Assembly: GCA_030672255.1 (NCBI GenBank)
Contig: DAOVGU010000202.1
Coordinates: forward strand, 1 to 40,849
Length of the DNA stretch: 40,849 nt
From: a bacterium
GTDB lineage: Bacteria; Ratteibacteria; UBA8468
Direction of reading: 5' to 3'
In this document: positions 13,747-39,987 of the stretch, piece by piece
Numbering within the stretch: the first letter of the stretch is position 1
Layout: the number at the start of each line of letters is the position of its first letter
Position numbers and translations under genes: made by a program
The notes under the pieces: generated by a model
The model's input: the letters and a program-made list of their open reading frames with translations, nothing else
Told to the model about the DNA's origin: nothing
Database searches by the model: none

Positions 13747-13748
13747 TA

Positions 13749-16181: not shown

Positions 16182-16453
16182 AATTGAGAAAATATCTGCA
16201 ATTTGGCTTAATTTTCTTCTGAGGTAAGGAAGGAGAAAATAGCCAGAGATGAAAAAATAGAGGGATTTATTCTTGGAATGTGTAGAGAAAATTTAGGCGG
16301 AATAAAAGTGTTCTCAGTGAGAGAGAGCGAAGAGAGTGAAAACATAGGTATTCACCTTGTCGGTAGGCCCAGTCTATTTTTACTGGAAAACTGTGGGGGC
16401 AAAGATTCCCCGTTTGCTTTGGGAAATGGGCAAAGAGCTCAAAAAGCAATAAG

Positions 16454-17581
16454 ATGATTGAAACTGCAGAACTGAAAAAGGGTGCTATAAATTTCTTGGA
16501 AGAAATGCGTATACCTAAAACATGGAATTTTAAATTTTGTTCTGAGAATAATCCTACTCTTATAGGTTCTTGTTTAGCCGCAATGTTGGGAAATTTTATC
16601 GGTTATTTTGATAAATTAACCAAAAGTGATAAGAAAAACTGGGCTAATTATATAAAAAGTTTTCAAAGGAAAGATGGTTGGTTTGAAGACGAAGACATAG
16701 CCGAAAAGAATCTTTCTCCGGGATACTTAAAAGATAGGGCTTTACTCCATAGAACCCGTCACGCATTATTTGCCCTCTATGCTTTAGAGGAAAGGCCTCT
16801 TTATAAATTTTATTTCTTAGAAAACTGGCTTGGTAAAGGGAAAATGAGAAAATGGTGCGAGACATTAAATTTATCAGATTATTGGTATAGCAGTAATGTG
16901 ATGATGGATATTGCCATTTTTCTGATGGATAATGGCTACTATAATAAAAATGAAAGATCTTGGCAGGCAGTGGAAGAACTTTTAAACTTTTGTGATGAAA
17001 ATGTAAACACTGAAACGGGTTTCCACGATAAAGGGATTAGTGAAATACGTAACGCAATGGCTGGCGCTATGCATCTATATCCAGTATATTTTTTAATGAA
17101 GCGACCGGTTAAAAAGATTAAAGAGACAATTCAAACTACTGTAAGTTTACAGCAGCCAGACGGTCTTTTTGGATATGAGTCAGGCAAAGGGGGAGAGGAT
17201 TGTCTGGATTATGATGCAGTTTTTATCTTAGCGAATTTATGCTTTACCAATAAAGAATTTGAAGCAGTGATTAAGGAATCTTTTCTGAGGTGCCTGAAAG
17301 GGATTATGGTTTGCAAAAATCCAGATGGCGGCTTTTCATGCCATCGAAGAAATGAAACATATTTTTTTGGCACAAAAACCACAGTAGTTCCCACAGGGAA
17401 AAGCAGTCTCTGGGCAACATATAGTCGTCTTTTAACCATTGCGATGATGATGAATATTCTTTATCCAGAAACCCGCTCAGAATGGAAAATGGGAGCAAAT
17501 TTGATGGAAATATGGGATGGAGGTACAGGAATTATGCAGAATTATCCACCATCACGATTAAGGAATGAAATGGGGGGATAA
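16454..17581 (+). CDS. hypothetical protein with prenyltransferase/terpene-cyclase-like alpha/alpha-toroid repeats
   Basis: It contains QQPDGLFGY, KNPDGGFSCH and RKDGWFED repeats of the Q-x-x-DG-x-F type. Confidence 0.35.
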   Translation: MIETAELKKGAINFLEEMRIPKTWNFKFCSENNPTLIGSCLAAMLGNFIGYFDKLTKSDKKNWANYIKSFQRKDGWFEDEDIAEKNLSPGYLKDRALLHRTRHALFALYALEERPLYKFYFLENWLGKGKMRKWCETLNLSDYWYSSNVMMDIAIFLMDNGYYNKNERSWQAVEELLNFCDENVNTETGFHDKGISEIRNAMAGAMHLYPVYFLMKRPVKKIKETIQTTVSLQQPDGLFGYESGKGGEDCLDYDAVFILANLCFTNKEFEAVIKESFLRCLKGIMVCKNPDGGFSCHRRNETYFFGTKTTVVPTGKSSLWATYSRLLTIAMMMNILYPETRSEWKMGANLMEIWDGGTGIMQNYPPSRLRNEMGG

Positions 17582-17583
17582 AT

Positions 17584-19272
17584 ATGACTTCTTTCATAAT
17601 TGCCAGAGGTAAAAAACCTGCTTGCACTGTTCTTCTTGGCTCAGCAAAAGAGGATTTAGAGACAGCAGAACTATTGCAAAAAAGAGTTGAAGGAATTAGC
17701 GATGTAAGGTTAAAGATAACCACCAAAAGACAGAATAGCCACCACAAAAATCAAATTCTTATCGGTTCCCCGGTTTCAAATTCTCTCTCCCGGCAAATAT
17801 TAAGAGAAAAAAAGATTTTAGTGGCACCAAAGGATAAAGAGAGAGAAGAGAATAAGCGGTTATTAGTTCTTGAGGATTTAGGCAATCAGGGATTTATTAT
17901 CTATAAAACAAACTACAAAGGAAAAAAATATTTAATTCTCTCTGGGGAAACTTCCCAAGGTGTTTTCTATGCAGTAAACACCTTTATTAACCGGTTATAT
18001 CTCAAAGGGAAAGATTTAATAGTAGATAATCTTGATTCTAATATAACCCCAGTTATAAATATTCCTGCCTTTAAATATAGAAGTGTAGCCACCAATATTG
18101 GTGGTCCAGATTGGCTTGGTCATAACCAATGGGAGAAAGAATGGGGTTATGATTATAAAGGTTTTATTGACTGGTTGGCCAGCCATAAGATAAATAATCT
18201 TAATATCTGGCCATTTGATTTAGCCTTTGGTATTGCCTATAACTCCAAGAAATTTTCTGAGTGTGTAAACAGATATCATCCTAATGTAAAAAGAGAGTTT
18301 ATTCAGGATATGATTAAATATGCTCACAAAAGATATATAAAAGTATTCTTCTTCATAGATTTCCCGGATAACTGGACAGCAATAATCAAGGCTCATCCGG
18401 AATTAGCCGGGAAAAATGTTAATCCAAAAAATATCCCTTCAGGAAAAGAATGGGAGAATTATCAAAAGCGAGGAGAAGGATTGTGCGCTGGTGGGGAGCG
18501 TTTCCGGAGTAAATTTAGCTGGGTCTGTGCCAGCAATCCAAAGACAATGCAATTCTGGAAAGATTACTGGGAAGAACTTTTAGACAGATATCCAGATGTA
18601 GATGGAATAGGGGGACAATTCTGCGAACATTCTAATACCCGATGTAACTGCAAGAATTGCACAAAAAATTTCTTCCAACTTCAGTTAAAATACTTTGAAG
18701 AAATGATAAAAATTGGTAAAAAGAAGAATCCTCACATCAAAATCTGGCTTTATGATGTCTGGGGAACAAGAGACATCCTAAAAAATAAAGATGAATTTCC
18801 TGGTCTCATTCGTATTGACTGGAATAGTAAATTCGTTCCTTTTATCTTCAGGCACTATGTCCCCCGGGGTAACTGGTATCTTTATCATCGGGGTTATAAC
18901 GAGGTTGGCTCAGAATTTGGGATAAGAGAATGTGCTAAAATATTTAATGAAAGGAACTTAGAAGGTTATCAGATAAGAGGCGTTCATTATAAAGAGACGG
19001 AACAAATCTATTCTGCCTTTGAAGAATTTTCCTGGAATCCTTCTCTTTCCATAGAAGATTTTGCCTATCTTTATGCCTTAAAAAGATTTAGAAAAAGGGA
19101 TGAAAGATTTTCTCGGACCTATATTTCCTGGATAAAAGTTCAAGGCTATCAGGAAATTCTTTCTTACGAAAAAATATCTCCAGAGATTAAAAAAGATTAT
19201 CGGAGAAGACTAAAAGAGGAAACAGAAATTTTCAAGAGGACTTCAAAGGGGGTAAAGAGTCTTTTTCCTTAG
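17584..19272 (+). CDS. hypothetical protein, possibly glycoside-hydrolase-like (GH20b-type N-domain + TIM barrel, DUF4838-like)
   Basis: QGFIIYKT..KYLILSGETSQGVFYAVNTFINRL resembles the N-domain of hexosaminidase/DUF4838 proteins. It also has a Cys cluster, CEHSNTRCNCKNC. The assignment is tentative. Confidence 0.3.
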   Translation: MTSFIIARGKKPACTVLLGSAKEDLETAELLQKRVEGISDVRLKITTKRQNSHHKNQILIGSPVSNSLSRQILREKKILVAPKDKEREENKRLLVLEDLGNQGFIIYKTNYKGKKYLILSGETSQGVFYAVNTFINRLYLKGKDLIVDNLDSNITPVINIPAFKYRSVATNIGGPDWLGHNQWEKEWGYDYKGFIDWLASHKINNLNIWPFDLAFGIAYNSKKFSECVNRYHPNVKREFIQDMIKYAHKRYIKVFFFIDFPDNWTAIIKAHPELAGKNVNPKNIPSGKEWENYQKRGEGLCAGGERFRSKFSWVCASNPKTMQFWKDYWEELLDRYPDVDGIGGQFCEHSNTRCNCKNCTKNFFQLQLKYFEEMIKIGKKKNPHIKIWLYDVWGTRDILKNKDEFPGLIRIDWNSKFVPFIFRHYVPRGNWYLYHRGYNEVGSEFGIRECAKIFNERNLEGYQIRGVHYKETEQIYSAFEEFSWNPSLSIEDFAYLYALKRFRKRDERFSRTYISWIKVQGYQEILSYEKISPEIKKDYRRRLKEETEIFKRTSKGVKSLFP

Positions 19273-25787: not shown

Positions 25788-26171
25788 ATGAGGATTGAAA
25801 TAGAAAGATTGGTAAAGCAGGCCAGTCGGGATTTGGAAAATGCCAAGAAGAATTTAGATATAGAGGCATATGAGGTCTCTGCGTTTCTTGCTCAGCAATC
25901 TGTAGAAAAACACCTGAAATCTCTTTGGATACATCTCCATCAGGAAAATCCTCCTGCCACTCATACTTTAACCGAGTTAGGTCAGGGTATAGGTATTCCT
26001 GAAAAATTGAAGCATAATCTGGCTAACCTCACTCCAGACTATACTGTCTCCCGTTACCCTGACGCAGCTAACGGAGTTCCTTATGAGATGTATGATAAAG
26101 AAACGGCTGAAAGGAAGGTATCTCTTGCTGAAGAGATAGTTTTATGGGTGAGAAGAAAAATAGGACTATAG
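25788..26171 (+). CDS. HEPN domain protein (toxin-like partner of MNT)
   Basis: AFLAQQSVEKHLKSLWI ... DYTVSRYPD are classical HEPN helices and the RY motif. Confidence 0.75.
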   Translation: MRIEIERLVKQASRDLENAKKNLDIEAYEVSAFLAQQSVEKHLKSLWIHLHQENPPATHTLTELGQGIGIPEKLKHNLANLTPDYTVSRYPDAANGVPYEMYDKETAERKVSLAEEIVLWVRRKIGL

Positions 26172-26464
26172 ATCTGTTTAAGCGTTCTTTGCCCCGGATA
26201 AGAAAGAGGTTCAAGCCAGAAAGATTATATCTTTTTGGTTCCCATGCTAAGGGAGAAGCCCTTGTTAATAGCGACTTAGATGTAGTTATAGTGTCTGAAC
26301 GCTTTGGGCATATAAAATTTATTGATCGCCTTAGTGCAGTCCTCGAACTTATTGAGCCAGCAGTAGCAATAGACCTGCTGTGCTATACACCTGAGGAGTT
26401 TAAGCGAAAGAGCCAAGAAATAGGAATAGTTAGGGAGTCATTGAAGCATAAAATAGACCTTTAG
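26144..26464 (+). CDS. minimal nucleotidyltransferase (MNT) domain protein
   Basis: LFGSHAKGEALVNSDLDVVIV is the GS-x9/10-DxD NTase motif. The gene overlaps the HEPN gene by 28 nt. Confidence 0.8.
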   Translation: MGEKKNRTIDLFKRSLPRIRKRFKPERLYLFGSHAKGEALVNSDLDVVIVSERFGHIKFIDRLSAVLELIEPAVAIDLLCYTPEEFKRKSQEIGIVRESLKHKIDL

Positions 26465-27528: not shown

Positions 27529-27556
27529 TTGACAAATTATTTTTTTGGGGTATAAT
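27529..27556 (+). promoter_or_regulatory. near-consensus sigma70 promoter upstream of the IclR-family gene
   Basis: TTGACA (27529-27534), 16-nt spacer, TATAAT (27551-27556). Confidence 0.65.
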
Positions 27557-27606: not shown

Positions 27607-28362
27607 ATGATGGTTCAATCGGTGGAGCGGGCATTAAATATCTTGGAGGAGTTAGGCCGGATTAAGGATGAATCCAAAGGCATTGGCGTTTTGGAACTAA
27701 GCAGAATCCTTGAACTTAAAAGTTCTACCGCCCATAACCTTTTAAAGACTTTGCTCCAGCATCAATATGTGGAGAAGATAGAGGAAACAAAAAAATATCG
27801 GCTGGGGCAAAATTGCTATAATTTAGTGAAGGAAAAATTAATAACCAACAGGTTGGCAAAATCTGCTGAACCGACCATCCTTAATCTCAGCCAAAAGCTC
27901 AACGAATCCATTGTCCTGGCGGTTTACCACCAGGGAGAAAGATTCGTTATCTCTAAGGTAGAGAGCCAGCAACCCTTGAAGGTGGATATGAGTTTTTCCC
28001 TTGCTCCTGATGCCTATCACCCAGTAACTGGGCGAGTTTTACTCAGCCAACTCACCAATGAAGAGTTAAAGGACTATACCAAGCGCCATGGATTTCCCGG
28101 TAAGCGGTGGAACGGAATCAGTGATTTTGCCTCCCTGCAGAAAGAATTAATAAAAATTAAGCGAGAAGGAATGGCAATTCGACAAAATAAAGATGAGCAA
28201 ATTTGTGCCTTAGCCGTTCCCATTATGGGAGGAAGGGAAAGGTTAATTGCCGCTTTAGGCATATACTTACCTTTAGTCAGGTTTAGAGGAAAGCACAAAA
28301 GAGAGATTATAAAAGGATTAAAGGATGCCGCTAAGAATATCTCAATGAGGTTTAATTATTAG
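27607..28362 (+). CDS. IclR-family transcriptional regulator
   Basis: [14 protein letters not shown]...[27 protein letters not shown] is the wHTH, followed by a C-terminal effector domain of typical length. Confidence 0.85.
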
Positions 28363-28394: not shown

Positions 28395-29416
28395 ATGGAA
28401 TATTTGCCAATGCAAAAAAATGTTCCAGTAGCAAAGAAAGTGGACGTTGTTGTTTGTGGCGGGGGGCCGGCAGGGTTAGCGGCGGCGATTGCCGCAGCAA
28501 GAAATGGGGCGCAAACTCTCCTGATAGAACAACTTAATTGTTTGGGGGGAATGGCCACTGCAGGCTTGGTCGGTCCTTTTGTGGCGACCGCCGGTGAAAA
28601 AGGGGGTATCTACAAAGAACTTCTTGAGCGGTTAGAAAAAAATAAGGGCGCGGAAGGTAGGGGTTTTGATGTAGAATCCCTTAAATATTTTGCTCAGATA
28701 ATCTGTGAAGAAACCGGAGTAAAATTCCTTCTGCATACTTTTGTCTGTGGCGTTGTAAGGGAGAAGTTACCCTTCCTGATTATGTTAACCATATCTGGGG
28801 CAGCAAGGGGAGTACCATCCGGAAGGGAGAGATATCCCTTAACCTTGATATGACTACCGGCATTGATGGAACAAGCCCTGAAGTATTAACGCAAGCCGAA
28901 GTTGAAGGAAGAAGATTGGTCTGGGAATGCATCAGATTCATTCGTAAATATGTTCCTGGGGCAGAAAATGCTTATCTTTCTAAAACCCCTTTTCTTTATG
29001 GAATCAGGGAGACCCGGATGATCTTAGGGGAATATCTTCTTACGGAAGATGATGTATTGAAAGCAAGGAAGTTTAAGGACGGAATTGCCAAAGACTCCTT
29101 TTTTATCGACATTCATGGTCCACACTTACAGGATAAAGAGTGGGTGAAATCCCATCGTGTTCCTGAAGGCGATTGGTATGAGATTCCCTACCATTGCCTT
29201 CTGCCCAAGGATATAGATAATTTGCTCACCGCGGGAAGGTGTATCTCTTCTGACCGGGAAGCCAACGGTTCTTTAAGAATTATGCCCACCTGTATGGCCA
29301 CGGGGCAAGCGGCCGGAACGGCAGGAGCAATGGCAATAAAGGGAAAGATAAAACCCAGAGAGATAAAAGGAGAAAAGCTTCGGGAAATCTTAATTTCTCA
29401 AGGAGCAGATTTATAA
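28395..29416 (+). pseudogene. FAD-dependent oxidoreductase (FAD_oxidored-type), frameshifted with an apparent internal deletion
   Basis: [37 protein letters not shown] is the dinucleotide fold. The frame breaks near 28770-28850. The C-terminal part (RCISSDREANGSLRIMPTCMATGQAAG) is in another frame. The parts total about 340 aa, and the central IDATGD-type region is not seen. Confidence 0.6.
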
Positions 29417-29428
29417 GCAAAAAAGTAA

Positions 29429-29505
29429 TCCCCCACCCTCCCCCTATAGGTGGGGAGGGCTCCCATCCGGTGGATGAGATGGAGGGAAAGAGGGAAGGGG
29501 GAAAA
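29429..29505 (+). repeat. GC-rich palindromic element, copy 3 (intergenic)
   Basis: cccccaccctccccctataggtggggagggctccc...ggagggaaagagggaagggggaaaag. Confidence 0.75.
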
Positions 29506-29516: not shown

Positions 29517-30566
29517 ATGGACAGATTAACAAAAGAAGTAAAAAAATATGCTAAGAAGTGCGGAGCCGATATTGTTGGAATCACCTCAATGGAGAGGTTT
29601 GAGGGTTTGTCAAAACAGATGGACCCTCGCCATATCTTCCCAGAGGCAAAATCAATGATTGTCATCGGTTTCCGTATCTTCAGGGGTGTTTTTAGAGGTA
29701 TTGAGGAAGGAACCTTTTTCGCTCCCTATTCAATTATGGGCTATGAGGGAACACGCTGGGTGTTTCAGCCGGTTGTCCTCTGGAATTTCACCAAGTTGCT
29801 CGAAAACAAAGGTTACGAAGCAATACCGATACCGGATAATTTTCCCTGGAGCAATATCGAGAACCTTGACCCGGACGATATTGGTCAGAACTTCATCAAT
29901 GTGAATCCATCACAAGTTGGCAATGCAAATGGCAACTGGAGCAAATCTGTCTCTCCAGGAAAGCCCGCTCCGGATGTCTTTTTTCAATTGAAAATTGCTG
30001 CCTTTTGTGCAGGCTTGGGTGAGATAGGTTATAGTGGAATGTTTCTGACTCCTGAGTTTGGGCCGAGACAGATGTTTGCGGCGATTATTACCGATGCTTC
30101 TTTGCGACCTGACCCTTTATTTGAAGGAAAGCTCTGCGATAACTGTATGGCTTGCGTCGAAGAATGCCCGGCACATGCTATATCAAAAACCGAAAAGGTC
30201 AAGATTACTGTAGCGGGAAGAAAACTGGAATGGGCAAAACTGGATTTTAATAAATGCAGTGTTGCTTTTCACGGCGGGGTTAAGGAATATAATCCATTTA
30301 TGATTACGACTGAGGACGAAAAGGGGTTTGCCCAGCAACCCTATACTAAATCTATGAAGTATAAACTCGGGCCCGTTTACTGGTACGGTAGAGGGCTTGA
30401 GGGAATGCGCGGTTGCCAGATTGCCTGCATGGTTCATCTGGAGGAGCAAGGCAAACTCAAGAATGTTTTTAAGGGGTCTGTCCGCAAAAGAAAACCCTGG
30501 AGGGCGGAATGGAAGTTAGAGTCAAAAGTCAAAAAAGAGGAGAAGAGAATAAAGGTAGATGAATGA
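29517..30566 (+). CDS. QueG / reductive-dehalogenase-like Fe-S protein, paralogue 1
   Basis: LTKEVKKYAKKCGADIVGITS...EAKSMIVIG...LKIAAFCAGLGEIGYSGMFLTPEFGPRQMFAAIITDASLRPD...LCDNCMACVEECPAHAI parallels B. subtilis QueG (AVAERAGIGFSAKNCMITTPEYGSYVYLAEMITN...CGSCTKCLDACPTGAL). There is one CxxCxxCxxxCP motif, plus KCSVAFHGG and GCQIACMVH. Confidence 0.65.
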   Translation: MDRLTKEVKKYAKKCGADIVGITSMERFEGLSKQMDPRHIFPEAKSMIVIGFRIFRGVFRGIEEGTFFAPYSIMGYEGTRWVFQPVVLWNFTKLLENKGYEAIPIPDNFPWSNIENLDPDDIGQNFINVNPSQVGNANGNWSKSVSPGKPAPDVFFQLKIAAFCAGLGEIGYSGMFLTPEFGPRQMFAAIITDASLRPDPLFEGKLCDNCMACVEECPAHAISKTEKVKITVAGRKLEWAKLDFNKCSVAFHGGVKEYNPFMITTEDEKGFAQQPYTKSMKYKLGPVYWYGRGLEGMRGCQIACMVHLEEQGKLKNVFKGSVRKRKPWRAEWKLESKVKKEEKRIKVDE

Positions 30567-30584
30567 TTATTTTGGAGGAATAGT

Positions 30585-31541
30585 ATGTTAACATCTGAAA
30601 AAATAAAGAAGTATGCCAAGAGTTGCGGGGCTGATATTGTCGGCATCACATCAATGGGGAGGTTTGAGGGCGCGCCAAAACAGATGGACCCAAGATACAT
30701 TTTCCCTGAAGCAAAATCAATGATTGTGATGGGCTTTCGCCATTTCAGAGGGGTTTTTCGGGGCATTGAGGAGGGAACCTTCTTCACCGCTTATTCGGCA
30801 ATGGGTTATGCGGGAATAAACTATATCCAGCAGCCATTGGTTCTCTGGAATGTAAGCAGAATAATTGAGGATGAAGGATATGAAGCGGTTCCTATACCGA
30901 ACAATTTCCCGTGGGGTAACACAGCTACAAGCGGCCAAAATCCGGAAAAAACCGGTAAGATGAATCCAGATCTTAGCAGACCTGTCTCGCCGGATAGGCC
31001 TGCCCCTAATGTTTTTCTTCAGTTAAGAATTGCGGCATTTTGTGCCGGCTTAGGCGAGATAGGTTATAGCAAGATGTTTCTGTCTCCTGAGTTCGGACCA
31101 AGGCAAAGACTTGCCGCAATTATCACCGATGCACCTTTAACGCCAGATTCCTTATTTAAGGGAAAACTCTGTGATAAGTGTATGCTCTGTGTTAAGGCTT
31201 GTACAGTGCAGGCAATACCAAAGGATAGGACGGTCAAGATTACTGTAGCGGGAAGAAAACTGGAATGGGCAGACATAGATATGCGAAAATGCAGTGTTGG
31301 TTTTTGTGGTGGGAGCAAACATGCCAATCCATTTATGGTTACCTCTGAGGATGAGAAAAGGTTTAAACAGGAAGTAGGCAACGCTCAAAGGTATAAACTT
31401 CACCCGATGTATGTCTATGCCCGGGCACTCGAAGGGGCGGCGGGTTGCATCCGTGCGTGTATGATTCACTTAGAACAAAAAGGAGTATTAAAAAACAAAT
31501 TCAAACACCCCTTTAGAAAAAGAAAACCCTGGAGGTTATAA
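30585..31541 (+). CDS. QueG / reductive-dehalogenase-like Fe-S protein, paralogue 2
   Basis: It has the same architecture as paralogue 1 and high identity to it (LRIAAFCAGLGEIGYSKMFLSPEFGPRQRLAAIITDAPLTPD...CDKCMLCVKACTVQAI). Confidence 0.65.
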   Translation: MLTSEKIKKYAKSCGADIVGITSMGRFEGAPKQMDPRYIFPEAKSMIVMGFRHFRGVFRGIEEGTFFTAYSAMGYAGINYIQQPLVLWNVSRIIEDEGYEAVPIPNNFPWGNTATSGQNPEKTGKMNPDLSRPVSPDRPAPNVFLQLRIAAFCAGLGEIGYSKMFLSPEFGPRQRLAAIITDAPLTPDSLFKGKLCDKCMLCVKACTVQAIPKDRTVKITVAGRKLEWADIDMRKCSVGFCGGSKHANPFMVTSEDEKRFKQEVGNAQRYKLHPMYVYARALEGAAGCIRACMIHLEQKGVLKNKFKHPFRKRKPWRL

Positions 31542-31543
31542 AA

Positions 31544-32575
31544 ATGAAATTCGCAATAGGCTATCAACTTCCTGAAGAAGACGAGGAACCCTTCACAGAG
31601 ATTGTCAGGGATTTCCGCGAGGATGTAGAAGAGGTTTACTTTCCCTGGCTGGATATGCCCAGTGGTCGTTCTCCAATGACAATGCGGGATGGTGTTGTTG
31701 ACTGGAACGGTCAGCGCAAACTGGAAGAGGAACTAAAGAAATTCAAGAAGATGGGCATTAAACTGGACTTACTCTTAAACGCCAACTGTTATGGCCGGAA
31801 CAGTTTGTCGCAGCATCTCAAAAATCTCGTATGCTCGATTGTCGCCCACCTGAAGGAAACAACAGGACTGGATGTGGTTACAACCGCCTCCCTGATGATT
31901 GCCAGAACGGTAAAGGAAAATTTTCCCGAGATAGACGTTCGCGCCTCGGTGAATATGAGAATTGGCACGATAAAGGCGATGGAGTATGTAGCAGACCTCT
32001 TTGATAGTTTCTATATCCAGAGGGAATACAACCGGGACTTCAAGAGAATAAGAGAAATAAAAAAGTGGACGGACAAACAAGGCAAGGGATTATGTCTTCT
32101 CGCAAACAGCGGTTGTTTGAATTTCTGTTCAGGACAGGTCTTTCACGATAACCTTGTCGCCCATGAGGCAGAGATATCGGCAATGAATAACATTGAGGGC
32201 TGGAACCCAAGTGTGTGCTGGAATTACTACAAAAAAAGGGAGAACCGGGTTACCTTCTTAGAGAACTCCTGGATAAGGCCTGAGGATTTACACAACTACG
32301 ACACTTATTTCCCGATGGCGAAACTCGCCACGAGGATGCATGCCCATCCCCGGAAAGTTATTCAGGCCTACTGCGAGCAGAGATTTCAGGGAAACTTGCT
32401 TGACCTTCTTGAACCAGGTCACGGTCCAATATTTTCTGACTATCTCATTGATAATGCAAAATTTCCCGAAGATTGGTTCAAAAGAACGAGCACCTGTGAT
32501 AAGAAATGTCATCAATGCAACTATTGTTCAGAGGTCTTAAAAAAAGTCCTGGTAAGAATTGGCCTCCATGGTTAA
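31544..32575 (+). CDS. Cys-rich TIM-barrel-like protein, possibly U32 (collagenase/UbiV-like) family
   Basis: The N-terminus MKFAIGYQL...VEEVYFPW...SGRS and the NSGCLNFCSGQ motif recall U32-family proteins. There is a C-terminal cluster CDKKCHQCNYC. The assignment is tentative. Confidence 0.3.
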   Translation: MKFAIGYQLPEEDEEPFTEIVRDFREDVEEVYFPWLDMPSGRSPMTMRDGVVDWNGQRKLEEELKKFKKMGIKLDLLLNANCYGRNSLSQHLKNLVCSIVAHLKETTGLDVVTTASLMIARTVKENFPEIDVRASVNMRIGTIKAMEYVADLFDSFYIQREYNRDFKRIREIKKWTDKQGKGLCLLANSGCLNFCSGQVFHDNLVAHEAEISAMNNIEGWNPSVCWNYYKKRENRVTFLENSWIRPEDLHNYDTYFPMAKLATRMHAHPRKVIQAYCEQRFQGNLLDLLEPGHGPIFSDYLIDNAKFPEDWFKRTSTCDKKCHQCNYCSEVLKKVLVRIGLHG

Positions 32576-32623
32576 GAACTCACGGGGTATAAGAAAATCT
32601 CCCCCAGGTTTAATTATTAAGGA

Positions 32624-33224
32624 ATGAAAATGACACCTAAAGAAAATTTATTAACTGTCTTCCAGCATAAAAATCCTCAGTGGGTGCCCTGCACCCCGCA
32701 TATAGCTAATGAATATAACATTCCTGGCCAATTACCTGAAGAACTTTTAAAAAAGCCTCTGGATCGGCTTAAAATTATCAGATATTTAGGCGGGGATGTG
32801 CTCTACCAAATTTTCCCTGTTAAAGGTATTGAATCCCCGGGAATAAAAAGAAGGAGCGAACGAAAAGGCGATGTCGTAATTAACAATATTGAAACATCGG
32901 TAGGCAATCTTTCTTCAAAAACAAAGACAACTTCAATTGAATCGCCAGTCTATGCTGAAATGGATAAAAGCCTTGTTTCTGTCGGTTCTATTGAGCTGAG
33001 TAGAATAATAGAATTCCCGATAAAATCTGTTCAGGATTGACCCTCCTATTTTACTTGAGGGCAATCCTGAAAAGGTCTCTGCTACTGTAATAGAGATGTT
33101 AAGGGGAGTAGCCCCGGCTGACAATTTCATTCTTATTATACCCTGTGGACGAGCACCTTTGCAGAATTTGCGCGCAGCTATTAGCACTATGAAAGAATAC
33201 GGCAAATATCCGGTGAAAATTTAA
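32624..33224 (+). pseudogene. uroporphyrinogen-decarboxylase (URO-D)/MtaA-like gene, internally deleted and frameshifted
   Basis: The N-terminus is MTPKENLLTVFQHKNPQWVP. The C-terminal piece is in another frame (IDPPILLEGNPEKVSATVIEMLRGVAPADNFILIIPCGRAPLQNLRAAISTMKEYG). The pieces total about 200 aa, against roughly 340 expected. Confidence 0.5.
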
Positions 33225-33244
33225 GGAAAAAGGAGAAGAGAGAA

Positions 33245-35494
33245 ATGGATAGATTGACTAAGGAAGTAAAGGAATATGCTAAGAAGTGTGGAGCAGATTT
33301 AATCGGGATAGCTCCGGTGGAAAGGTTTAAGAATGCACCCTTGCGAATGAGCCCGAAAGGGCTTTTGCCTTCAGCTAAATCAGTAATTGTCGTCGCGGTT
33401 CATCATCTGGATGCTTCGGTAGAATTGGGAGGTGAGCCATCTCCTCACGACGGAGGTCCTTATTGGGGGCAGAGTTCGGCAATGAATCCTAAATTGGATG
33501 ATATCGCTTTCCTTTTAGCTCGTTTTTTGGAGGAGAAGGGATATAAAACCTTACCCATTCCGGTTACCAATATCTGGCGGTATAAAGGGTATAAAGATTT
33601 GAAAGTTGACTTTGCTCCGGATTTGGTGCATCGCTATGCGGCGGTAGCCGCCGGATTGGGAGAAATTGGTTGGAGCGGGTTGTTTCTTTCCCCGCAATTT
33701 GGTCCCCGGCAACGGTTAACCTCCATCATTACCGAGGCAGAACTTACTCCCGACCCGATGTATTCGGGAAAATCCTTATGCGATAAATGTATGGAATGCG
33801 TAAAGCATTGTCCTACGGATGCCTTTCGCAAAGAGGTAAAGAAGATAAACAAGATTGAAATTGGCGGAAAAGTTTTTAAGTTCCCGGATACGAATAAATG
33901 GCGCTGCGCCTGGGCGGAGAATTTTGCACTGAGTTTAGACCTGAAAATTCCGGAAAAGGTGGACGAAAAGGTAATCTTAGATACTCAGGAAAAATATGGA
34001 CAGCGTGGAGGAGAAGAAGGAAGTTGCTTAAAATACTGTATGGTTCCGGATAGAAGGTACTATGATAAGAAATACACATCTGCTCCTCATAGAAGGAAAG
34101 AAAAATTGAATATTTCTGCTAAAAAAATTGCTAATAAAATCAAAGAAATGGCCAAAGAGAGCTTCGTAGAACTTTTGGCAATCGGCAATAAAAAAGATTT
34201 CAAAGATAATCCATTTGTGCATCCGGAATTTCATCTGCCGGATGCCGAATCAATCATTTGCCTGGGGATAGAAGTATCGGCTAACGAAGAAAACCCTGAT
34301 TTTAAAGGAGCAGTCTTAAGAAGATTAAATTATATTGAGTTTGAAATCGCCCATTATCTGGACATAACTGGCTATTCCGCGGTTACAAAAACTAAAATAG
34401 CCGATGATTTGGTTGCCCAGCAATTAGGGATTTACCAGAGTAACCTCTATTTTACCAGCGTTTTAACCAATGCCAAATTGCCGAAATTGAAGCGGGACAC
34501 AAAGATAAAGAAAAAAACAAAAATAGAAAAGGAAGATTTAAAAAGATTCTCTCGGGAAAGAGGAGCAGATCTTGTAGGGTTCTTTTCGCAGAAGAGGTTC
34601 GAGGAATTTAAGAATAGCGTCCTTAAAACAAGATTGCTTTCCCAAAAGGAGAATTTTTATATCGAGGATAAAGGAGCAGGATACGGATCTTATATTCCTG
34701 AGGTCAAGCCGATTAATCCCGAGTTAAGAACCCCACAAGATTATTTATCCGGAGCAAAGTCGGTTATTGTGCTTGGTTTACATTTCCCGGATGCCTGTCT
34801 GGATACCGCGAAGATAACACCGGCCGAGACAGTTGGTCCTTACGCTTTTGCTCATTATGAAACACTATTTCTTCTCCGGGATAAGGCAATTAATATCGTA
34901 AAGTATATCCAGCAGAGAGGGTATCAAGCAACTATCAGTTATGACCTTTGTGGAATGGCTTCTTTGGTTAAAAGTTCACGGGGGATGCTGCCCGATAGCC
35001 GGGCTAATCGATTCGCCGCGATTCTTTCAGGTTTGGGGTATATCGGGGATAATGGTATTCCCTTAACGGAAAAATATGGCTCACGGCAGCGATTTATCTC
35101 TATCATCACCGACTATCCCTTTTCCGATGACCCGCTCTATGATGGAGAGATAATCTGTCAAAAATGCTCTCATCTCTGCATTAAAGCCTGCCCCACCAAG
35201 GCAATTAGAGAGAAAAAAATATCATTTTCTATAGAAGGAAAACAGTTTACTTTTCCCGAAATCGATACCAAGCGTTGTGATTGGGCTAAAAGATATGGTC
35301 TTGTCGGTAAAGGAGGTCCTGCCTATTATGGCCTAAAGACAGACTCTCCCCTTCCCCGAGGAAGAATAACCCCGGAGAAAATAGCTGCAGCATTGAGTAA
35401 AATAAAATGGGGAGTACAGAAGAGACATATCAATATCTGCGAGGAATGCATCAGGCTCTGCCCGGCACACAAAAATTCTAAGCCTTCAATATAA
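33245..35494 (+). CDS. tandem fusion of two QueG / reductive-dehalogenase-like modules (paralogues 3 and 4)
   Basis: Module 1: MDRLTKEVKEYAKKCGADLIGIA...YAAVAAGLGEIGWSGLFLSPQFGPRQRLTSIITEAELTPD...CDKCMECVKHCPTDAF. Module 2: LKRFSRERGADLVGFF...FAAILSGLGYIGDNGIPLTEKYGSRQRFISIITDYPFSDD...CQKCSHLCIKACPTKAI...CEECIRLCP. Confidence 0.65.
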   Translation: MDRLTKEVKEYAKKCGADLIGIAPVERFKNAPLRMSPKGLLPSAKSVIVVAVHHLDASVELGGEPSPHDGGPYWGQSSAMNPKLDDIAFLLARFLEEKGYKTLPIPVTNIWRYKGYKDLKVDFAPDLVHRYAAVAAGLGEIGWSGLFLSPQFGPRQRLTSIITEAELTPDPMYSGKSLCDKCMECVKHCPTDAFRKEVKKINKIEIGGKVFKFPDTNKWRCAWAENFALSLDLKIPEKVDEKVILDTQEKYGQRGGEEGSCLKYCMVPDRRYYDKKYTSAPHRRKEKLNISAKKIANKIKEMAKESFVELLAIGNKKDFKDNPFVHPEFHLPDAESIICLGIEVSANEENPDFKGAVLRRLNYIEFEIAHYLDITGYSAVTKTKIADDLVAQQLGIYQSNLYFTSVLTNAKLPKLKRDTKIKKKTKIEKEDLKRFSRERGADLVGFFSQKRFEEFKNSVLKTRLLSQKENFYIEDKGAGYGSYIPEVKPINPELRTPQDYLSGAKSVIVLGLHFPDACLDTAKITPAETVGPYAFAHYETLFLLRDKAINIVKYIQQRGYQATISYDLCGMASLVKSSRGMLPDSRANRFAAILSGLGYIGDNGIPLTEKYGSRQRFISIITDYPFSDDPLYDGEIICQKCSHLCIKACPTKAIREKKISFSIEGKQFTFPEIDTKRCDWAKRYGLVGKGGPAYYGLKTDSPLPRGRITPEKIAAALSKIKWGVQKRHINICEECIRLCPAHKNSKPSI

Positions 35495-35560: not shown

Positions 35561-35589
35561 TTGGCATTTCTGGCTAAATCTACTATAAT
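35561..35589 (+). promoter_or_regulatory. putative sigma70 promoter upstream of the dehydrogenase genes
   Basis: TTGGCA, 17-nt spacer, TATAAT. A GAAGGAGGAG RBS follows before the ATG at 35611. Confidence 0.55.
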
Positions 35590-35610
35590 AGATAACGAAG
35601 GAGGAGATTT

Positions 35611-36657
35611 ATGAAGATAGCAATTACTGAGGGGAATGGAAAAGTAAAGTTAGCGGAGGCTCCTATTCCTGAGCCAAACGAATACCAATGCCTGTGTAAA
35701 ATCCTGGCCTGTGCTACCTGTACGGGGACAGATCTCAAGATTATGAATAGGAAGATGTCTTGGGCAAAAGAGTATCCCGGTGTTTTAGGACATGAAAGCG
35801 TGGGTAGGGTGATTAAAATTGGCGCTAAGGTCAAGAATATCAAGGAAGGAGATATTTTTCTGCGGCCAACCGCGGTCTATCCCGGGGAAAAATTAGGGAA
35901 CTACTCCTCCCTGATAGGTGGTTTTGCCGAATATGGTCTGGTTACCGATACACAAGCACTTTTGGAAGACCAACCGGATGTAAAACCTAACCACTATACT
36001 ATCTACCAGCAGAAGATACCCCCGGATACTGCAATCTCACCGGCAGATGCGACGATGTTGATTACCCTGAAAGAAATTTCGAGTTTCGTCGCCAATGTTG
36101 GGGTGAAGTTCAATTCCTCCCTTGTTATTCTCGGTGCCGGAGCGGTTGCGATGAGCATCTGTTTCTTTGCAAAACTCTACGGTGCGTATCCGGTCATTGT
36201 TGTCAGTCGCAGGGATGAGCCCTTAGGACGCATAAAGAAGATTGGGGCAGATTTTACGGTAAACAACCAGAAGGAAGATATAATTGCTCAGGTGAAGGAG
36301 GTAACCGCTAATAAAGGCGTCAATTTTATAATTGATGCGGCGGGAGATTCGGCTTTTGTTTCAGAGGCGAGCCAATCTCTTGCGCCAAATGGAAAAATAG
36401 CGCTTTATGCTACCGGGAGTTCTTCCCAGGATATTGTAGGGCATAGCAAAACTCTTTCAGAAAAAGATTTTATTGCTGCGGGTCCCAGCGAAGAAATGGC
36501 TCACCAATACCTACTCGATATGGTAAGACTTAAGATAGTAGCGATAGATGCTTTTTACTCGCACCGTTTACCATTCAGTGAAATTAAAGAAGGCTTTGAA
36601 CTTTTAAAGAAAAAAGAGGCTTTTAAAATTGTTTTTGAAATGGAGGAATCAAGATGA
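35611..36657 (+). CDS. zinc-type MDR dehydrogenase
   Basis: CATCTGTDLKI, GHESVGRVIKIG and VILGAGAVAM are the MDR motifs. Confidence 0.8.
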   Translation: MKIAITEGNGKVKLAEAPIPEPNEYQCLCKILACATCTGTDLKIMNRKMSWAKEYPGVLGHESVGRVIKIGAKVKNIKEGDIFLRPTAVYPGEKLGNYSSLIGGFAEYGLVTDTQALLEDQPDVKPNHYTIYQQKIPPDTAISPADATMLITLKEISSFVANVGVKFNSSLVILGAGAVAMSICFFAKLYGAYPVIVVSRRDEPLGRIKKIGADFTVNNQKEDIIAQVKEVTANKGVNFIIDAAGDSAFVSEASQSLAPNGKIALYATGSSSQDIVGHSKTLSEKDFIAAGPSEEMAHQYLLDMVRLKIVAIDAFYSHRLPFSEIKEGFELLKKKEAFKIVFEMEESR

Positions 36658-36658
36658 G

Positions 36659-36710
36659 CTCTCACCCTGCCCTCTCCCCAGGTGGGAGAGGAATATAGGT
36701 GAGGGGGAGG
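36659..36710 (+). repeat. GC-rich palindromic element, copy 4 (short form, intergenic; supplies the downstream SD)
   Basis: ctcaccctgccctctccccaggtgggagaggaatataggtgagggggagg. The GGGGGAGG at its 3' end lies 6-13 nt upstream of the ATG at 36716. Confidence 0.75.
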
Positions 36711-36715
36711 TTAAA

Positions 36716-37726
36716 ATGTCTACTCGACAAACGAAGGCGGTAGTTTTTCCTGAGGCAAATAAATTTGAGATGACCCAGTTGGAGCTGGAAAAACCCGGGC
36801 CGGGCGACATCGTCGTCAAAACTCTAATATCGGCGATATCGCCAGGGACGGAGAGATGGGTTCTGCGCGGCAAGCATATTGGCACACGGTTTCCTTGTGT
36901 TCCGGGATACCACCGCATTGGCATTGTTGAAGAAAGCGGAAAAGGAGTAAAAAACTTTCGGGTCGGTGATATTGTATATGGAAGCGGAAACCGCTGGCAA
37001 GGAGATATTGTTTCGATGTGGGGAGCGCATCTTGGCCTATCCGTGGGTAATTGGGCCGGCTATCGCTTCCTTGACTCTTCCTTGCCAAAACGGTTAGAGT
37101 TAGAAACAATGGCCTTTGCAATTTTAGCCGGGGTTGCCAACCGCGGGATACGTTTCTGCGATGTCAAAGCCGGGCAAAGGGTTTTGATCATCGGAGCCGG
37201 TTTTATTGGAATTTGTGCATCACAACTGGTTTCCCTTCGTGGTGCGCATCCTGTCCTGCTTGAAATTGACCCCGAGCATATCGCATTTGCAAAACAATTA
37301 ATCCAGAATGTGCTCAGTCCAAAGGATGAAAAACTAAAAGAGGCGCTCCAGGAACTGGCACCGAATGGATTTGATGTCCTTTATGATACAGTGGGAGATG
37401 CAGCCACGACAGACAGAATGGTCCAGCATATGCGAGGCCAGGGAACTCTTTTACTCCAGGCGCAGTATTTTGACAAAGAACGCTGCGCGCTCGACCTCGA
37501 CCAGATTAAGATCCGCGAACTGACGGTGAAAACAACCTGTGGGACTGATGACCAGGACTGGGCAGAGACAATAAATAACATCCGCAGTCGTCTCCTTAAA
37601 ATAGCTCCCTTGATTACGCACCGCTTTGAGGCGGCTAATGCGCTTAAAGGATACGAACTGCTTCATACCGGCAAGCCGTTCAATTTAGGGATTGTTTTTC
37701 GCTGGGACGAAAGAGTAAAGGATTGA
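36716..37726 (+). CDS. MDR-superfamily dehydrogenase lacking the classical zinc ligands
   Basis: ISPGTERWVL stands in place of C-G-S/T-D and GYHRIGIVEESG in place of GHE. The Rossmann motif is LIIGAGFIGI. The start is taken at MSTRQTKAVVF; the 5' extension in the ORF track runs through the repeat. Confidence 0.7.
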   Translation: MSTRQTKAVVFPEANKFEMTQLELEKPGPGDIVVKTLISAISPGTERWVLRGKHIGTRFPCVPGYHRIGIVEESGKGVKNFRVGDIVYGSGNRWQGDIVSMWGAHLGLSVGNWAGYRFLDSSLPKRLELETMAFAILAGVANRGIRFCDVKAGQRVLIIGAGFIGICASQLVSLRGAHPVLLEIDPEHIAFAKQLIQNVLSPKDEKLKEALQELAPNGFDVLYDTVGDAATTDRMVQHMRGQGTLLLQAQYFDKERCALDLDQIKIRELTVKTTCGTDDQDWAETINNIRSRLLKIAPLITHRFEAANALKGYELLHTGKPFNLGIVFRWDERVKD

Positions 37727-37735
37727 TGTAGAAAC

Positions 37736-37817
37736 GTCATTGCGAGGGGATGTAATCCCCGAAGCAATCTCAAAGAAGTAAGGGATTGCCGCGCTCCTTT
37801 CAGTCGCTCGCAATGAC
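37736..37817. repeat. palindromic repeat of the gtcattgcgag / ctcgcaatgac family
   Basis: gtcattgcgag-gggatgtaatcccc-gaagcaatctc...gggattgcc...ctcgcaatgac, same family as 10752-10933. Confidence 0.8.
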
Positions 37818-37849
37818 AGAGCATTGTTGTTATAAAACAAGGGAGGAAT

Positions 37850-39013
37850 ATGGAAGGGTATCGATTGCCAGATAGGGAATTTGAGGTAAGGTGGCAAAAG
37901 GTTCAGGAAGGGGTGAGGGCGAAAGGATTGGATTTGCTTCTCGCTCATTCTGATGAGGCGGATTTTGCCAATGTACGGTATTTATCCGATTACTGGCCTA
38001 TCTTTGAGTCCGCCGGAGTTATTGTGCCGGCGGAAGGCGAACCGGCCTTACTGATTGGTCCGGAAAGCGAGACTTTTGCCCGCGACCGCAGCCGAATTAA
38101 AAAGATTTATAAACTGGTGGAATACCGGGAAAGTGCGGAGCCGGACTACCCGGATATAAAGGTGGATACCTTTTCCTCAATTTTCCCGGAGATGATGCCG
38201 GGTAAGAAGGTCAAAAAGATCGGGTTAGCCGGTTACCAGATTTTTCCTCTGCCTGTTTACGAGAGCCTGAAAGCCGCGGCTCCGGAAGCGGAAATAATTA
38301 AGAGCGATGAATTGATTGTTAACCTCAGGATTATTAAGAGCCCCGCGGAATTGGAAATGCTTCAGGAGGCATTTCGTATTTCGGAAAAGGCATTGGAAGA
38401 AACCCTGAGAGAAATTAAGCCAGAGATGACCGAACTGGAAGTGGTGGGTATTATTGAGAAGGAGCTCTATGCCAACGGCGCGGAATACGAGGGTCATCCC
38501 CAGTATGTTTTATCAGGGAAGAATTCAACGCATGCCATCGGAAGACCTAACTATCAAAGGTTGGAAAAGGGAGCCTTGATCCAACTTAATATCGGCGCCC
38601 GGGTTGCTGGCTACTCCGCCAGTGTGGGCCGACCGGTTTGTATCGGAAAGATGAGTAGAGAAATGCGGCGTCTGGTGCAGGCAGGTCTTGACTTGCACCT
38701 GAAGACGATGGAATGGATGGCGCCGGGCGTAATCGCTAAAGATGTGGTGCAAAAGTTTAATGATTATGCAACAAAATTGGGGGTAAATCAGAATCTCCTT
38801 TATGGTCCCTGTCACGGCCTGGGGATGATGGAAGTGGAACGTCCCTGGATGGAATCACATTCCGATTACCCGTTGCAGGAGAAGATGACCTTCCAGGTCG
38901 ATACGTTTCTCTACAACCCTGATTTCGGTCTGCGCTGGGAAGATGGAGTTTGTATCACTAAAGATGGAGTGAGACCTTTTTCTAATCAGTTGCAAAAAAT
39001 AATCGAGATTTAA
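37850..39013 (+). CDS. M24-fold protein (creatinase / Xaa-Pro peptidase family) lacking both Asp metal ligands
   Basis: It has a creatinase/prolidase N-domain plus the pita-bread domain. GALIQLNIGARVAGYSASVGRP aligns to the PepP motif GDLVLIDAGCEYKGYAGDITRT, with D to N and D to S substitutions. Confidence 0.7.
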   Translation: MEGYRLPDREFEVRWQKVQEGVRAKGLDLLLAHSDEADFANVRYLSDYWPIFESAGVIVPAEGEPALLIGPESETFARDRSRIKKIYKLVEYRESAEPDYPDIKVDTFSSIFPEMMPGKKVKKIGLAGYQIFPLPVYESLKAAAPEAEIIKSDELIVNLRIIKSPAELEMLQEAFRISEKALEETLREIKPEMTELEVVGIIEKELYANGAEYEGHPQYVLSGKNSTHAIGRPNYQRLEKGALIQLNIGARVAGYSASVGRPVCIGKMSREMRRLVQAGLDLHLKTMEWMAPGVIAKDVVQKFNDYATKLGVNQNLLYGPCHGLGMMEVERPWMESHSDYPLQEKMTFQVDTFLYNPDFGLRWEDGVCITKDGVRPFSNQLQKIIEI

Positions 39014-39212
39014 ATCAGCGAGGTTAAAAACCTCGCACTACATTACATAGTAGTGGTCGAGCTTGCTCGACATAAGCAGAGTAAACGTAAATACTCAGTG
39101 AACACCGTACCAAAAGGTAGTCGCAACCTTTAGGTTGCGCAGGCGCAGGATGAATCCTGCGGCTACCAGCCTACGTCTACTTGAAAATAACGGCTTTTAC
39201 TGAATATTTACG
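39014..39212. repeat. array of five perfect hairpins, including a 127-nt unit bounded by 14-nt inverted repeats
   Basis: Hairpins lie at 39018-39036, 39036-39055, 39056-39071, 39122-39139 and 39144-39161. The last two are closed by ggtag/ctacc (39116/39163). The inverted repeat is cgtaaatactcagt (39086) against actgaatatttacg (39199), with 1 mismatch. Confidence 0.75.
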
Positions 39213-39243
39213 AATTCAGGTTCGCTAAAAAAGGGAGGTAGAT

Positions 39244-39987
39244 ATGCGTTATGAACTAATGTTTTCCTATCAAATAAGGAAAGCAATCAAGGAGGAATGG
39301 CCTGTTGTTCTTCCTCTTGGGGTGCTGGAATATCATAGCGAGCATTGTGTTGTTGGAGTGGATACACTTTTGGTAACAAAGGCTTTAGAAATTCTGGAAA
39401 ATGAAATTGACATGATTATTCTGCCACCGTTTTTTTATGGAGCTGGCAGTTATGCGGTGGAACCGCCTGAAAACAAAGGAACAATTCATGTTGCATCAAA
39501 GGCTCTCCATATTTTTGCAAAGGACCTCTTTTTAAGTTTATTGAGAATAGGTTTCAAAAATATTCATATCTTTATCCATCATCAGAGCGAAAATTTTGTT
39601 GCCGGAATGCCAACTGACCTTGCTTTTAAACTGGCAGCACGCGAGATAATGTTTGATTATTTAGAGAAAGCAAGAGGAGAAGGCTGGTGGGGTGATAATA
39701 GGATGCAGGACTACTATTCAAGACATGAGACCGGAACAGACCCTTTCAATTGGATAAAAATTCATCCATTTATGGATGAAGAGACACAGAAAAAATTCCC
39801 AATAGACCATGCCGGTCTTCAAGAAACCTCTTTAATGATGGCTTTTTGTCCGGAAGGAGTTGATGCGAAAAAAATTTCTGATAAGAAGTGGTATGCCAGG
39901 CAAGCAAAAAAGGCAAATTTAAGGTATGGTGAAGAAGCCAAGGAAATGATTCTTAAAAAAATGCGAGAGATACTTAAAAAGAAATGA
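39244..39987 (+). CDS. creatininase-family amidohydrolase
   Basis: VVLPLGVLEYHSEHCVVGVDTLL corresponds to the family motif lP.Gs.EqHG.HLP...D. It has a GGGAGG RBS. Confidence 0.7.
   Translation: MRYELMFSYQIRKAIKEEWPVVLPLGVLEYHSEHCVVGVDTLLVTKALEILENEIDMIILPPFFYGAGSYAVEPPENKGTIHVASKALHIFAKDLFLSLLRIGFKNIHIFIHHQSENFVAGMPTDLAFKLAAREIMFDYLEKARGEGWWGDNRMQDYYSRHETGTDPFNWIKIHPFMDEETQKKFPIDHAGLQETSLMMAFCPEGVDAKKISDKKWYARQAKKANLRYGEEAKEMILKKMREILKKK

Follow-up and report, generated by a model that had tools for sequence, protein, structure and literature searches.

What kind of enzyme is encoded by a cluster of iron-sulfur (Fe-S) modules that resemble both the epoxyqueuosine reductase QueG and the reductive dehalogenases (RdhA) is the question raised by a locus in a bacterium of the Ratteibacteria (UBA8468). 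The window, that is, the whole stretch of DNA analyzed (contig DAOVGU010000202.1 of assembly GCA_030672255.1, positions 1 to 40,849 of the forward strand), had received a first-pass annotation made from the sequence alone, in which four paralogous modules at 29517–35494, two of them fused, were proposed to form an undescribed anaerobic redox system. These modules belong to a distinct, widespread, class-III-like, and previously uncharacterized clade, and a limited literature search of partial coverage found no published description of the family or of its partnership with a U32-like protein. The reading favored here, to which a probability of roughly one half is given, is an IclR-controlled cytoplasmic operon for a B12/Fe-S reductase assembled from paired modules, with a U32-like Fe-S protein as partner.

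The open reading frames (ORFs) of the modules lie exactly as annotated. P1 (29517–30566, 349 amino acids) and P2 (30585–31541, 318 amino acids) are single modules, and a fusion protein of 749 amino acids (33245–35494) carries module 3 at its N-terminus (33245–34120) and module 4 at its C-terminus (34505–35494), all on the + strand, as is every gene between 26527 and 39987. The four modules can be aligned end to end, with identities to P1 of 66% (P2), 36% (module 3), and 25% (module 4), and share 46 invariant columns that include GAD.VG, AGLGEIG, GPRQ, IITD, and CxxCxxCxxxC; tblastn matches among paralogues and orthologues (E 1e-30 to 1e-150) are far past chance. The class-III cobalamin/[Fe-S] superfamily comprises QueG, the reductive dehalogenases, and, without the ferredoxin module, MMACHC. 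A profile of 39 family sequences finds PceA (1e-18), QueG (4e-15), and NpRdhA (1e-10) in the PDB, in alignments that begin in the N-terminal GAD.VG segment and take in the ferredoxin module, and the most conserved stretch of the family, AGLGEIG...TPEFGPRQR, is also the most conserved stretch common to RdhA and QueG. With an AlphaFold2 model of P1 (predicted local distance difference test score, pLDDT, 84), the top 46 PDB matches in Foldseek are all RdhA, QueG, or NpRdhA, and MMACHC comes next. By sequence and predicted fold, with a nitroreductase-like core ahead of a bacterial two-cluster ferredoxin module, the modules are thus members of the class-III superfamily, in a relationship that is real but remote.

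Against the QueG family model TIGR00276, which has a curated equivalog cut-off of 200 bits, P1, P2, and the fusion protein score 35.7, 34.5, and 84.8 bits, respectively; P1 and P2 cover only positions 137–202 of the 337 in the model, and hhalign aligns only 71 core columns with Escherichia coli QueG. A D-Y-H motif is strictly conserved in QueG, in which Asp130 (S. thermophilus numbering) is catalytic (PMC4646009). This motif reads D-I-A in module 3 (phmmer against 5D6S) and falls in a gap region in P1 and P2, while an Asp or Asn occurs near the Asp130 position of the modules with ambiguous placement. The C-terminal HEAT-like tRNA-binding domain is absent from the modules, and P1, P2, and module 4 terminate 10–45 residues past the last Fe-S cysteine. 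A role in RNA modification, either by QueG paralogues or by a QueG-like protein paired with a TrhP/RlhA-like one on tRNA or rRNA, is favored by the label “epoxyqueuosine reductase” on members in some databases, by the score of the fusion protein marginally above the PF08331 (QueG_DUF1730) cut-off, by the strong conservation of both partners across phyla, and by the hydroxylation of tRNA and rRNA by known U32 oxidases (PMC11574389). It is extremely unlikely, and the weakest of the rival explanations, in view of the low and partial TIGR00276 matches, the altered or missing D-Y-H motif, the absent tRNA-binding extension, the patchy phyletic distribution, and the presence of up to six modules per operon under IclR or AraC regulators. 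A housekeeping function in tRNA modification is likewise unlikely, as had been argued in the first-pass annotation, because the paralogues are multiple and differentiated, IclR or AraC genes are neighbors, and both the QueG motif and tail are missing.

The best NCBIfam match of P1 and P2 is the reductive dehalogenase model TIGR02486, against which P1, P2, and the fusion protein score 48.1, 41.9, and 77.2 bits, with a cut-off of 160.35, and a Pfam scan at E ≤ 0.01 gave no match to PF13486 (Dehalogenase). The active-site triad of PceA consists of Tyr246, Asn272, and Arg305, the last of which has no equivalent in QueG (PMC4646009). The residue aligned with Arg305 is Arg in P2-type modules and in modules 3 and 4 and Met in P1-type modules, and Asp or Asn is conserved at both candidate sites for QueG Asp130/PceA Asn272, one following a β-strand (PIP-DN-FPW) and the other 12 residues before AGLG (AP-D). 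The template-modeling (TM) scores of the P1 model to NpRdhA-type structures are 0.43–0.48, far under the 0.92–0.95 with which cytosolic RdhA-like proteins of cold seeps match NpRdhA (PMC12219181); the module family is something else. The features of respiratory dehalogenases are missing as well: no twin-arginine translocation (TAT) signal, transmembrane helix, RdhB-like ORF, or small hydrophobic neighboring ORF was found at the locus, the N-termini of P1, P2, and the fusion protein (MDRLTKEVKKYAK, MLTSEKIKKYAK, and MDRLTKEVKEYAK) are without an RR motif, and the genes, spaced 18, 2, and 48 nt apart, are too close together for a small membrane ORF. From these sequence features, the modules are predicted to be cytoplasmic. 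Scores below both cut-offs and the lack of D-Y-H, HEAT-like tail, TAT signal, and RdhB indicate that the modules are neither QueG nor RdhA, as the first-pass annotation had proposed.

The modules could nevertheless be non-respiratory (catabolic) reductive dehalogenases, by which natural organohalides are stripped for their carbon skeleton and whose paralogues serve different substrates. The matches to TIGR02486 (the best in NCBIfam for P1 and P2) and PceA (the best in the PDB) and the conserved Arg in three of the four modules speak for this explanation, as does the observation that cytosolic RdhA-like genes of cold seeps also often adjoin IclR or MarR regulators (PMC12219181). It is distinctly unlikely given the weak TIGR02486 scores and low TM-scores, a catalytic Tyr that is not alignable, and hosts represented by digester and groundwater metagenome-assembled genomes (MAGs), in which organohalides are no obvious substrates; known dehalogenases, moreover, do not need a U32-like partner.

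The Fe-S motifs further differentiate the modules. The first motif, CxxCxxCxxxC, is invariant across the family and in P2 ends C-T. The second motif is degenerate only in part. In P1-type modules, its second Cys is replaced by His (C-x4-H...C-x3-C), and in module 3 only three Cys are present; the claim of a single canonical ferredoxin motif is too strong for P2-type modules, which have C-x4-C, about 47 residues, and C-x3-C (eight Cys altogether), and does not hold for module 4, in which the motif is canonical (CEECIRLCP, pattern CxxCxxxCP). The second cluster consequently has three to four ligands depending on the module type. P2 and module 3 retain GPRQR, the P2-type is the most widespread type, and module 4 is the most divergent. 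In the fusion protein, the linker (about residues 295–385, encoded at approximately 34127–34399 on the + strand) is a degenerate copy of an N-terminal half-module that aligns to P1 positions 5–103 (hhalign E 7e-5, probability 63%), so that the 749-amino-acid fusion holds about 2 1/3 modules.

P1 and P2 had been taken for a recent tandem duplication; their nucleotide identity is 72%, and P1-type orthologues show 57–81% identity to P1 and 40–63% to P2, with the reverse in P2-type orthologues. The two types occur side by side as separate orthologous groups in Kiritimatiellia, Victivallales/Lentisphaeria, and unclassified MAGs, and because of this separation in distant phyla and the low nucleotide identity, the duplication is ancient and maintained, and the view of it as recent is wrong. 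In a neighbor-joining tree, the P1-type, the P2-type, the N-terminal and C-terminal modules of fusions, and extra modules of Omnitrophota form separate clades across phyla, and module 3 shares its clade with the N-terminal modules of fusions of 738–756 amino acids at related loci L016, L060, L063, L077, and L080 (L numbers designate loci of the comparison described below). Of the 150 top-ranking cluster representatives, about one third are fusions of 725–836 amino acids. Paralogues diversified for different substrates, as suggested in the first-pass annotation, are one possible reading, but a hetero-oligomeric enzyme is indicated at least as strongly by the retained pairing and by the fusions.

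The cassette is conserved far beyond the window, so the refuting condition named in the first-pass annotation, a cluster conserved in no related genome, does not apply. P1 has 2805 database homologues, the family profile recovers 417 clusters (50% identity) at E ≤ 1e-30, and a P-family relative is encoded at no fewer than 573 loci of species-representative genomes, the best 80 of which were compared. These 80 loci are without exception from MAGs, as are the entries given by a look-up of cluster members for cultured hosts, and they belong to Kiritimatiellia, Victivallales/Lentisphaeria, Verrucomicrobiota, Planctomycetota, Armatimonadota, Zipacnadia, WS1, Omnitrophota, Ratteibacteria, Anaerolineae, Clostridia, and one Bathyarchaeia; MAGs from anaerobic digesters and groundwater are included. 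Two or more P genes are present at 29 of the 80 loci, the fused form at 6, an IclR gene near the cassette at 11, and a PF12831 flavin adenine dinucleotide (FAD)-dependent oxidoreductase gene at 6; fused proteins of ~740 amino acids, IclR, and the flavoprotein are each found repeatedly in different phyla. Clusters of neighboring ORFs made de novo were contaminated by antisense ORFs in high-GC loci, and only Pfam-confirmed clusters were counted. The closest cassette is that of GCA_018812485.1; the closest locus (L010) has the order IclR, P1, P2, U32-like, with the same ABC-transporter genes upstream and no URO-D gene. Omnitrophota and Ratteibacteria MAGs contain an expanded co-directional cassette (L077, 632–11089; L078, 1–7806; L076, 1–6993), in which a fusion and four single genes supply six modules together with one U32-like gene and two PF12831 flavoproteins, in the order IclR, fusion, FAD, P2-like, U32-like, three more modules, and second FAD. 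In Lentisphaeria (L004–L009 and L033; about 10001–16588 in L004), P1 and P2 are followed by an M14 peptidase and a protein of 1100 amino acids with NPCBM and HZS_alpha domains, with no U32-like gene, an arrangement that recurs on many contigs.

The Cys-rich TIM-barrel gene next to P2 (31544–32575, + strand, 343 amino acids) begins 2 nt after the P2 stop codon, and at 36 of the 59 related loci that could be assessed, a P gene likewise stands directly upstream of the U32-like gene, with a spacing of 0–10 nt in half of them. The annotation had called this protein U32-like with reservation, and the assignment is borne out by fold. With PF01136, it scores 19.3 bits (cut-off 22.4) over profile positions 9–82 of 233, and an NCBIfam scan gave no match; in Foldseek, however, its AlphaFold2 model (pLDDT 86.5) matches the U32 protein Mk0906 (5d88) first (E 1.7e-8, target-normalized TM 0.70), the next match being about 3,000-fold weaker and the rest generic TIM barrels. 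It has 4430 homologues (60–91% identity among the 120 listed), some of which are labeled “collagenase-like PrtC protease” or “U32 family peptidase” and a few of which have a precomputed PF01136 hit. C82, C191, C195, and C225 are invariant, the only CX3C element being that between C191 and C195, and a C-terminal motif, C318-x3-C322-x2-C325-x2-C328, is nearly so. In U32 oxidases, a [4Fe-4S] cluster is bound by the four Cys of CX6CX15CX3C (PMC11574389). Alignment of the TIM-barrel profile by hhalign was marginal with E. coli UbiU (E 0.027) and gave no match with UbiV, so these proteins are of no use for mapping Fe-S ligands here. This is a divergent protein of the U32 fold that probably binds Fe-S clusters.

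The mean column identity of the U32-like protein (65%) exceeds that of the P family (50%), which could mean that the modules have lost the corrinoid and serve as Fe-S electron-transfer or scaffold subunits for the U32-like protein as the true catalyst. The non-canonical second-cluster motifs in three modules, the only moderate fold similarity to B12 enzymes, and the degenerate half-module in the fusion linker would fit such a role, for which the vestigial cobalamin domains of NpRdhA-type enzymes, ascribed to Payne et al. in PMC12219181, offer a precedent. This explanation is unlikely, since the entire N-terminal core is strongly conserved, including the AGLGEIG/GPRQR stretch common to B12-binding relatives, and P genes occur without an adjoining U32-like gene at 23 of the 59 assessable loci.

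In the favored reading of a paired B12/Fe-S reductase, the working unit would be a module pair, formed by P1 and P2 as a heterodimer and, through covalent fusion, by modules 3 and 4, and each pair would be coupled to the U32-fold Fe-S protein, the gene of which may be translationally coupled to that of the P2-type module. Low-potential electrons, supplied by ferredoxin or, at loci with an intact gene for it, by the PF12831 flavoprotein, would pass via the two Fe-S sites of the module to a base-off corrinoid, the Co(I) form of which would reductively cleave a small organic substrate at a C-O or C-X bond. This substrate would be sensed by IclR as inducer, and the U32-like partner might act on the same molecule in a complementary, O2-independent step. 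Homology, fold, pairing, fusion, linkage to the U32-like gene, and the ways in which the modules differ from QueG and RdhA are observed; we infer that a corrinoid is bound and that complexes form, and likewise which way the electrons flow and what chemistry follows.

Several points weigh against this reading. The TM-scores of the P1 model to solved class-III enzymes are modest (0.41–0.48), PceA Tyr246 aligns (HMMER, in a low-confidence stretch) to Phe or a variable position, and class-III enzymes lack a sequence motif diagnostic of B12 (PMC4646009) by which the corrinoid could be recognized directly. No Rfam family, the cobalamin riboswitch included, was found in the window or at 13 related loci. 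The U32-like gene does not adjoin P genes at 23 of 59 assessable loci, the 130 immediate neighbors contain, beyond regulators and the flavoprotein, none consistent enough to indicate a substrate, and the FAD and URO-D genes have decayed in the window, so the cassette there may be partly disabled.

Upstream of the modules, the regulator gene (27607–28362, + strand) encodes an IclR-family protein in which both the N-terminal HTH_IclR domain (PF09339, 6.8e-9) and the C-terminal effector domain (PF01614, 4.1e-24) exceed the Pfam cut-offs, as the first-pass annotation had assigned it; it is the putative sensor of the cassette for a small molecule. A promoter-like site found by consensus scan only (27529–27556, + strand; TTGACA, 16-nt spacer, TATAAT; 12/12 matches) agrees perfectly with the sigma-70 consensus, is the top match within the scanned 14-kb region, and lies 50 nt ahead of the IclR start codon. 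The final 30 nt of the IclR gene (28332–28361) and a segment of the spacer that separates the U32-like gene from the URO-D remnant (32590–32619) are identical at 25 of 30 bases, which could be the scar of a rearrangement from a second IclR-headed cassette, or chance.

The FAD and URO-D/MtaA-like genes had been recognized as remnants, and both have indeed decayed. The PF12831 gene (28395–29416, + strand) is now represented by ORFs 28395–28853 and 28850–29416, which correspond to profile positions 1–117 and 241–416 of 416 in different frames, so that positions 118–240 are gone, with a loss of about 110 internal codons, and a frameshift has been introduced; intact orthologues of 450–500 amino acids occur within the cassettes of L061, L076, L077, L078, and L084. 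The 100-nt spacer between this gene and P1 contains a C/G-rich inverted repeat at 29430–29465 (CCCACCCTCCCC CTATAGG TGGGGAGGG), followed by a purine-rich tract that extends to the P1 start codon. Of the URO-D/MtaA-family gene (32624–33218, + strand), nothing but the two ends is left, and these lie in two frames: a hidden Markov model made from URO-D-like neighbors, a family that corresponds to PF01208 and is present at 9 related loci, matches the remnant with positions 4–73 (within the 138-amino-acid ORF 32624–33040) and 317–372 (about 33056–33218).

This remnant within the cluster bears on the idea that the modules are corrinoid carriers in ether O-demethylation. In such a system, the methyl group of a methoxylated sugar or aromatic compound would be transferred to Co(I) and handed on by a URO-D/MtaA-type methyltransferase, and Co(II) would be reduced again by the Fe-S clusters that the modules contain. 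PF01208 genes directly adjoin the cassette at three of the 9 loci (L050, L061, and L085), which would suit this scheme, but most loci, including the closest relative, are without URO-D, and in the window the URO-D gene has decayed, in contrast to the intact P genes. URO-D-like genes seem to be abundant in the host phyla, and some of the adjacency may be chance; in addition, we know of no class-III enzyme that acts as a methyl carrier. Methyl transfer is very unlikely as the function of the modules.

Downstream, two medium-chain dehydrogenase/reductase (MDR) genes, an M24 (creatinase/Xaa-Pro peptidase-like) gene, and a creatininase-family gene, within a stretch at 35561–39987 (+ strand), had been listed as neighbors of the system. 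A promoter-like site (35561–35589, 11/12 positions, consensus match only) precedes the first MDR gene, and the two consensus sites suggest two transcription units. MDR-like genes are found at a few related loci, with 23–25% identity, and creatininase-like genes at five. With its own promoter-like site and no consistent linkage elsewhere, the MDR, M24, and creatininase group was rejected as part of the system and is probably a unit apart from the cassette.

The neighborhoods of related cassettes give a general setting. Among the 130 immediate neighbors, the recurrent Pfam families are IclR (9, the commonest), PF12831 (6), xylose-isomerase-like TIM barrel (5), AraC (5), Pyr_redox_2 (5), CstA (3), aldo-keto reductase (3), and GFO_IDH_MocA (3). 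In Firmicutes MAGs, P2-like, U32-like, and AraC regulator genes adjoin two sulfatases (L079, 9983–15980), and a P2-like gene and an AraC regulator without a U32-like gene adjoin GH88, short-chain dehydrogenase/reductase, RraA-like, and heparinase II/III-like genes (L074, 8934–18028); another cassette (L003) lies beside genes of glycoside hydrolase families GH4 and GH42. The sugar-type oxidoreductases, isomerase-like TIM barrels, glycoside hydrolases, and sulfatases in these neighborhoods suggest carbohydrate or biomass catabolism in anaerobes, with a substrate derived from glycans or plant/algal biomass. Sulfatase maturation or a sulfated-glycan role was rejected as a general link, as sulfatases are not recurrent among the 130 flanking proteins.

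Three other gene groups were observed elsewhere in the window. An MDR dehydrogenase, a sulfatase (PF00884, 1e-52), a prenyltransferase-like toroid protein, and a GHL6/GH20-like protein are encoded together at 13743–19272, a set that fits a host degrading sulfated glycans. At 25788–26464, between an ABC transporter gene and obg, a HEPN-domain protein gene (PF05168, 3e-25) overlaps that of a nucleotidyltransferase-domain protein (PF01909, 4e-12), in the layout of a HEPN/MNT toxin-antitoxin pair. On the − strand at 124–1838, a ThsB/TIR-like protein (PF08937, 5e-10), a DNA-methylase-like ORF (PF01555), and an unannotated ORF of 196 amino acids adjoin one another and may be a fragment of a defense island at the window edge.

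A bolder extension of the favored reading can be offered tentatively and is rather doubtful: a hetero-paired or fused corrinoid/Fe-S reductase and a new U32-fold Fe-S enzyme, as its obligatory partner, may jointly perform an O2-independent reaction for which no anaerobic enzyme is known. One candidate is a reaction that cleaves or deoxygenates ether, epoxide, or methoxy groups of compounds derived from glycans or plants. If this were true, a widespread and so far invisible route of anaerobic carbon turnover would exist in bacteria of the PVC (Planctomycetota–Verrucomicrobiota–Chlamydiota) group, Armatimonadota, Omnitrophota, and Clostridia. To our knowledge, class-III enzymes with a ferredoxin module catalyze two types of reaction, dehalogenation and epoxyqueuosine reduction, and the understanding of O2-independent hydroxylation by U32 proteins is at an early stage. 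Further class-III families, hard to recognize from sequence, have been predicted by Payne et al. (PMC4646009), and the large module family, with its distinctive architecture and altered second-cluster ligands, is a concrete candidate for one. The names “epoxyqueuosine reductase” and “collagenase-like protease,” which many databases give to these proteins, are very probably wrong. Once the substrate is defined, a new reaction would join those known to depend on B12, and the metabolism of the abundant uncultured anaerobes that degrade polymers would be easier to explain.

Among known systems, RdhA (PceA, 4UQU and 8Q4H; NpRdhA/BhbA, 4RAS and 6ZXU) shares with the modules the superfamily fold, in which an N-terminal α/β core precedes a ferredoxin module with two clusters, the AGLG...PEFGPR.R stretch, the Arg of three modules at the Arg305 position, and the alignment of the first Cys of the second motif (NKC), and the vestigial duplicated core domain of NpRdhA is comparable with the half-module in the fusion. 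Unlike RdhA, the modules have no TAT signal, RdhB, transmembrane helix, or NAD(P)H-reductase fusion, carry an insertion of about 50 residues inside the second Fe-S motif, are organized in conserved pairs of unlike modules or in fusions, and are linked to a U32-like protein. QueG (TIGR00276; 5D08 and 5D6S) resembles the modules in its cytoplasmic location, similar size, and superfamily, in the alignable N-terminal K..A...G.D.(V/I)G region and AG(I/L)G core, and in the missing Arg305 equivalent, which the P1-type also lacks, but the modules are without D-Y-H and the HEAT-like domain and occur as multiple paralogues in regulated operons. The partner protein resembles the U32 oxidases (UbiU/UbiV, TrhP, and RlhA) and Mk0906 (5D88) in its TIM-barrel fold, which is closest to Mk0906, in four invariant Cys as for an Fe-S site, and in its anaerobic setting; it differs in its subthreshold PF01136 score and in the replacement of CX6CX15CX3C by C82...C191-x3-C195...C225 plus the C-terminal four-Cys motif. 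Like UbiU-UbiV, it would work with a partner protein, as its gene linkage suggests, but this partner is a class-III B12-like protein in place of a second U32 protein.

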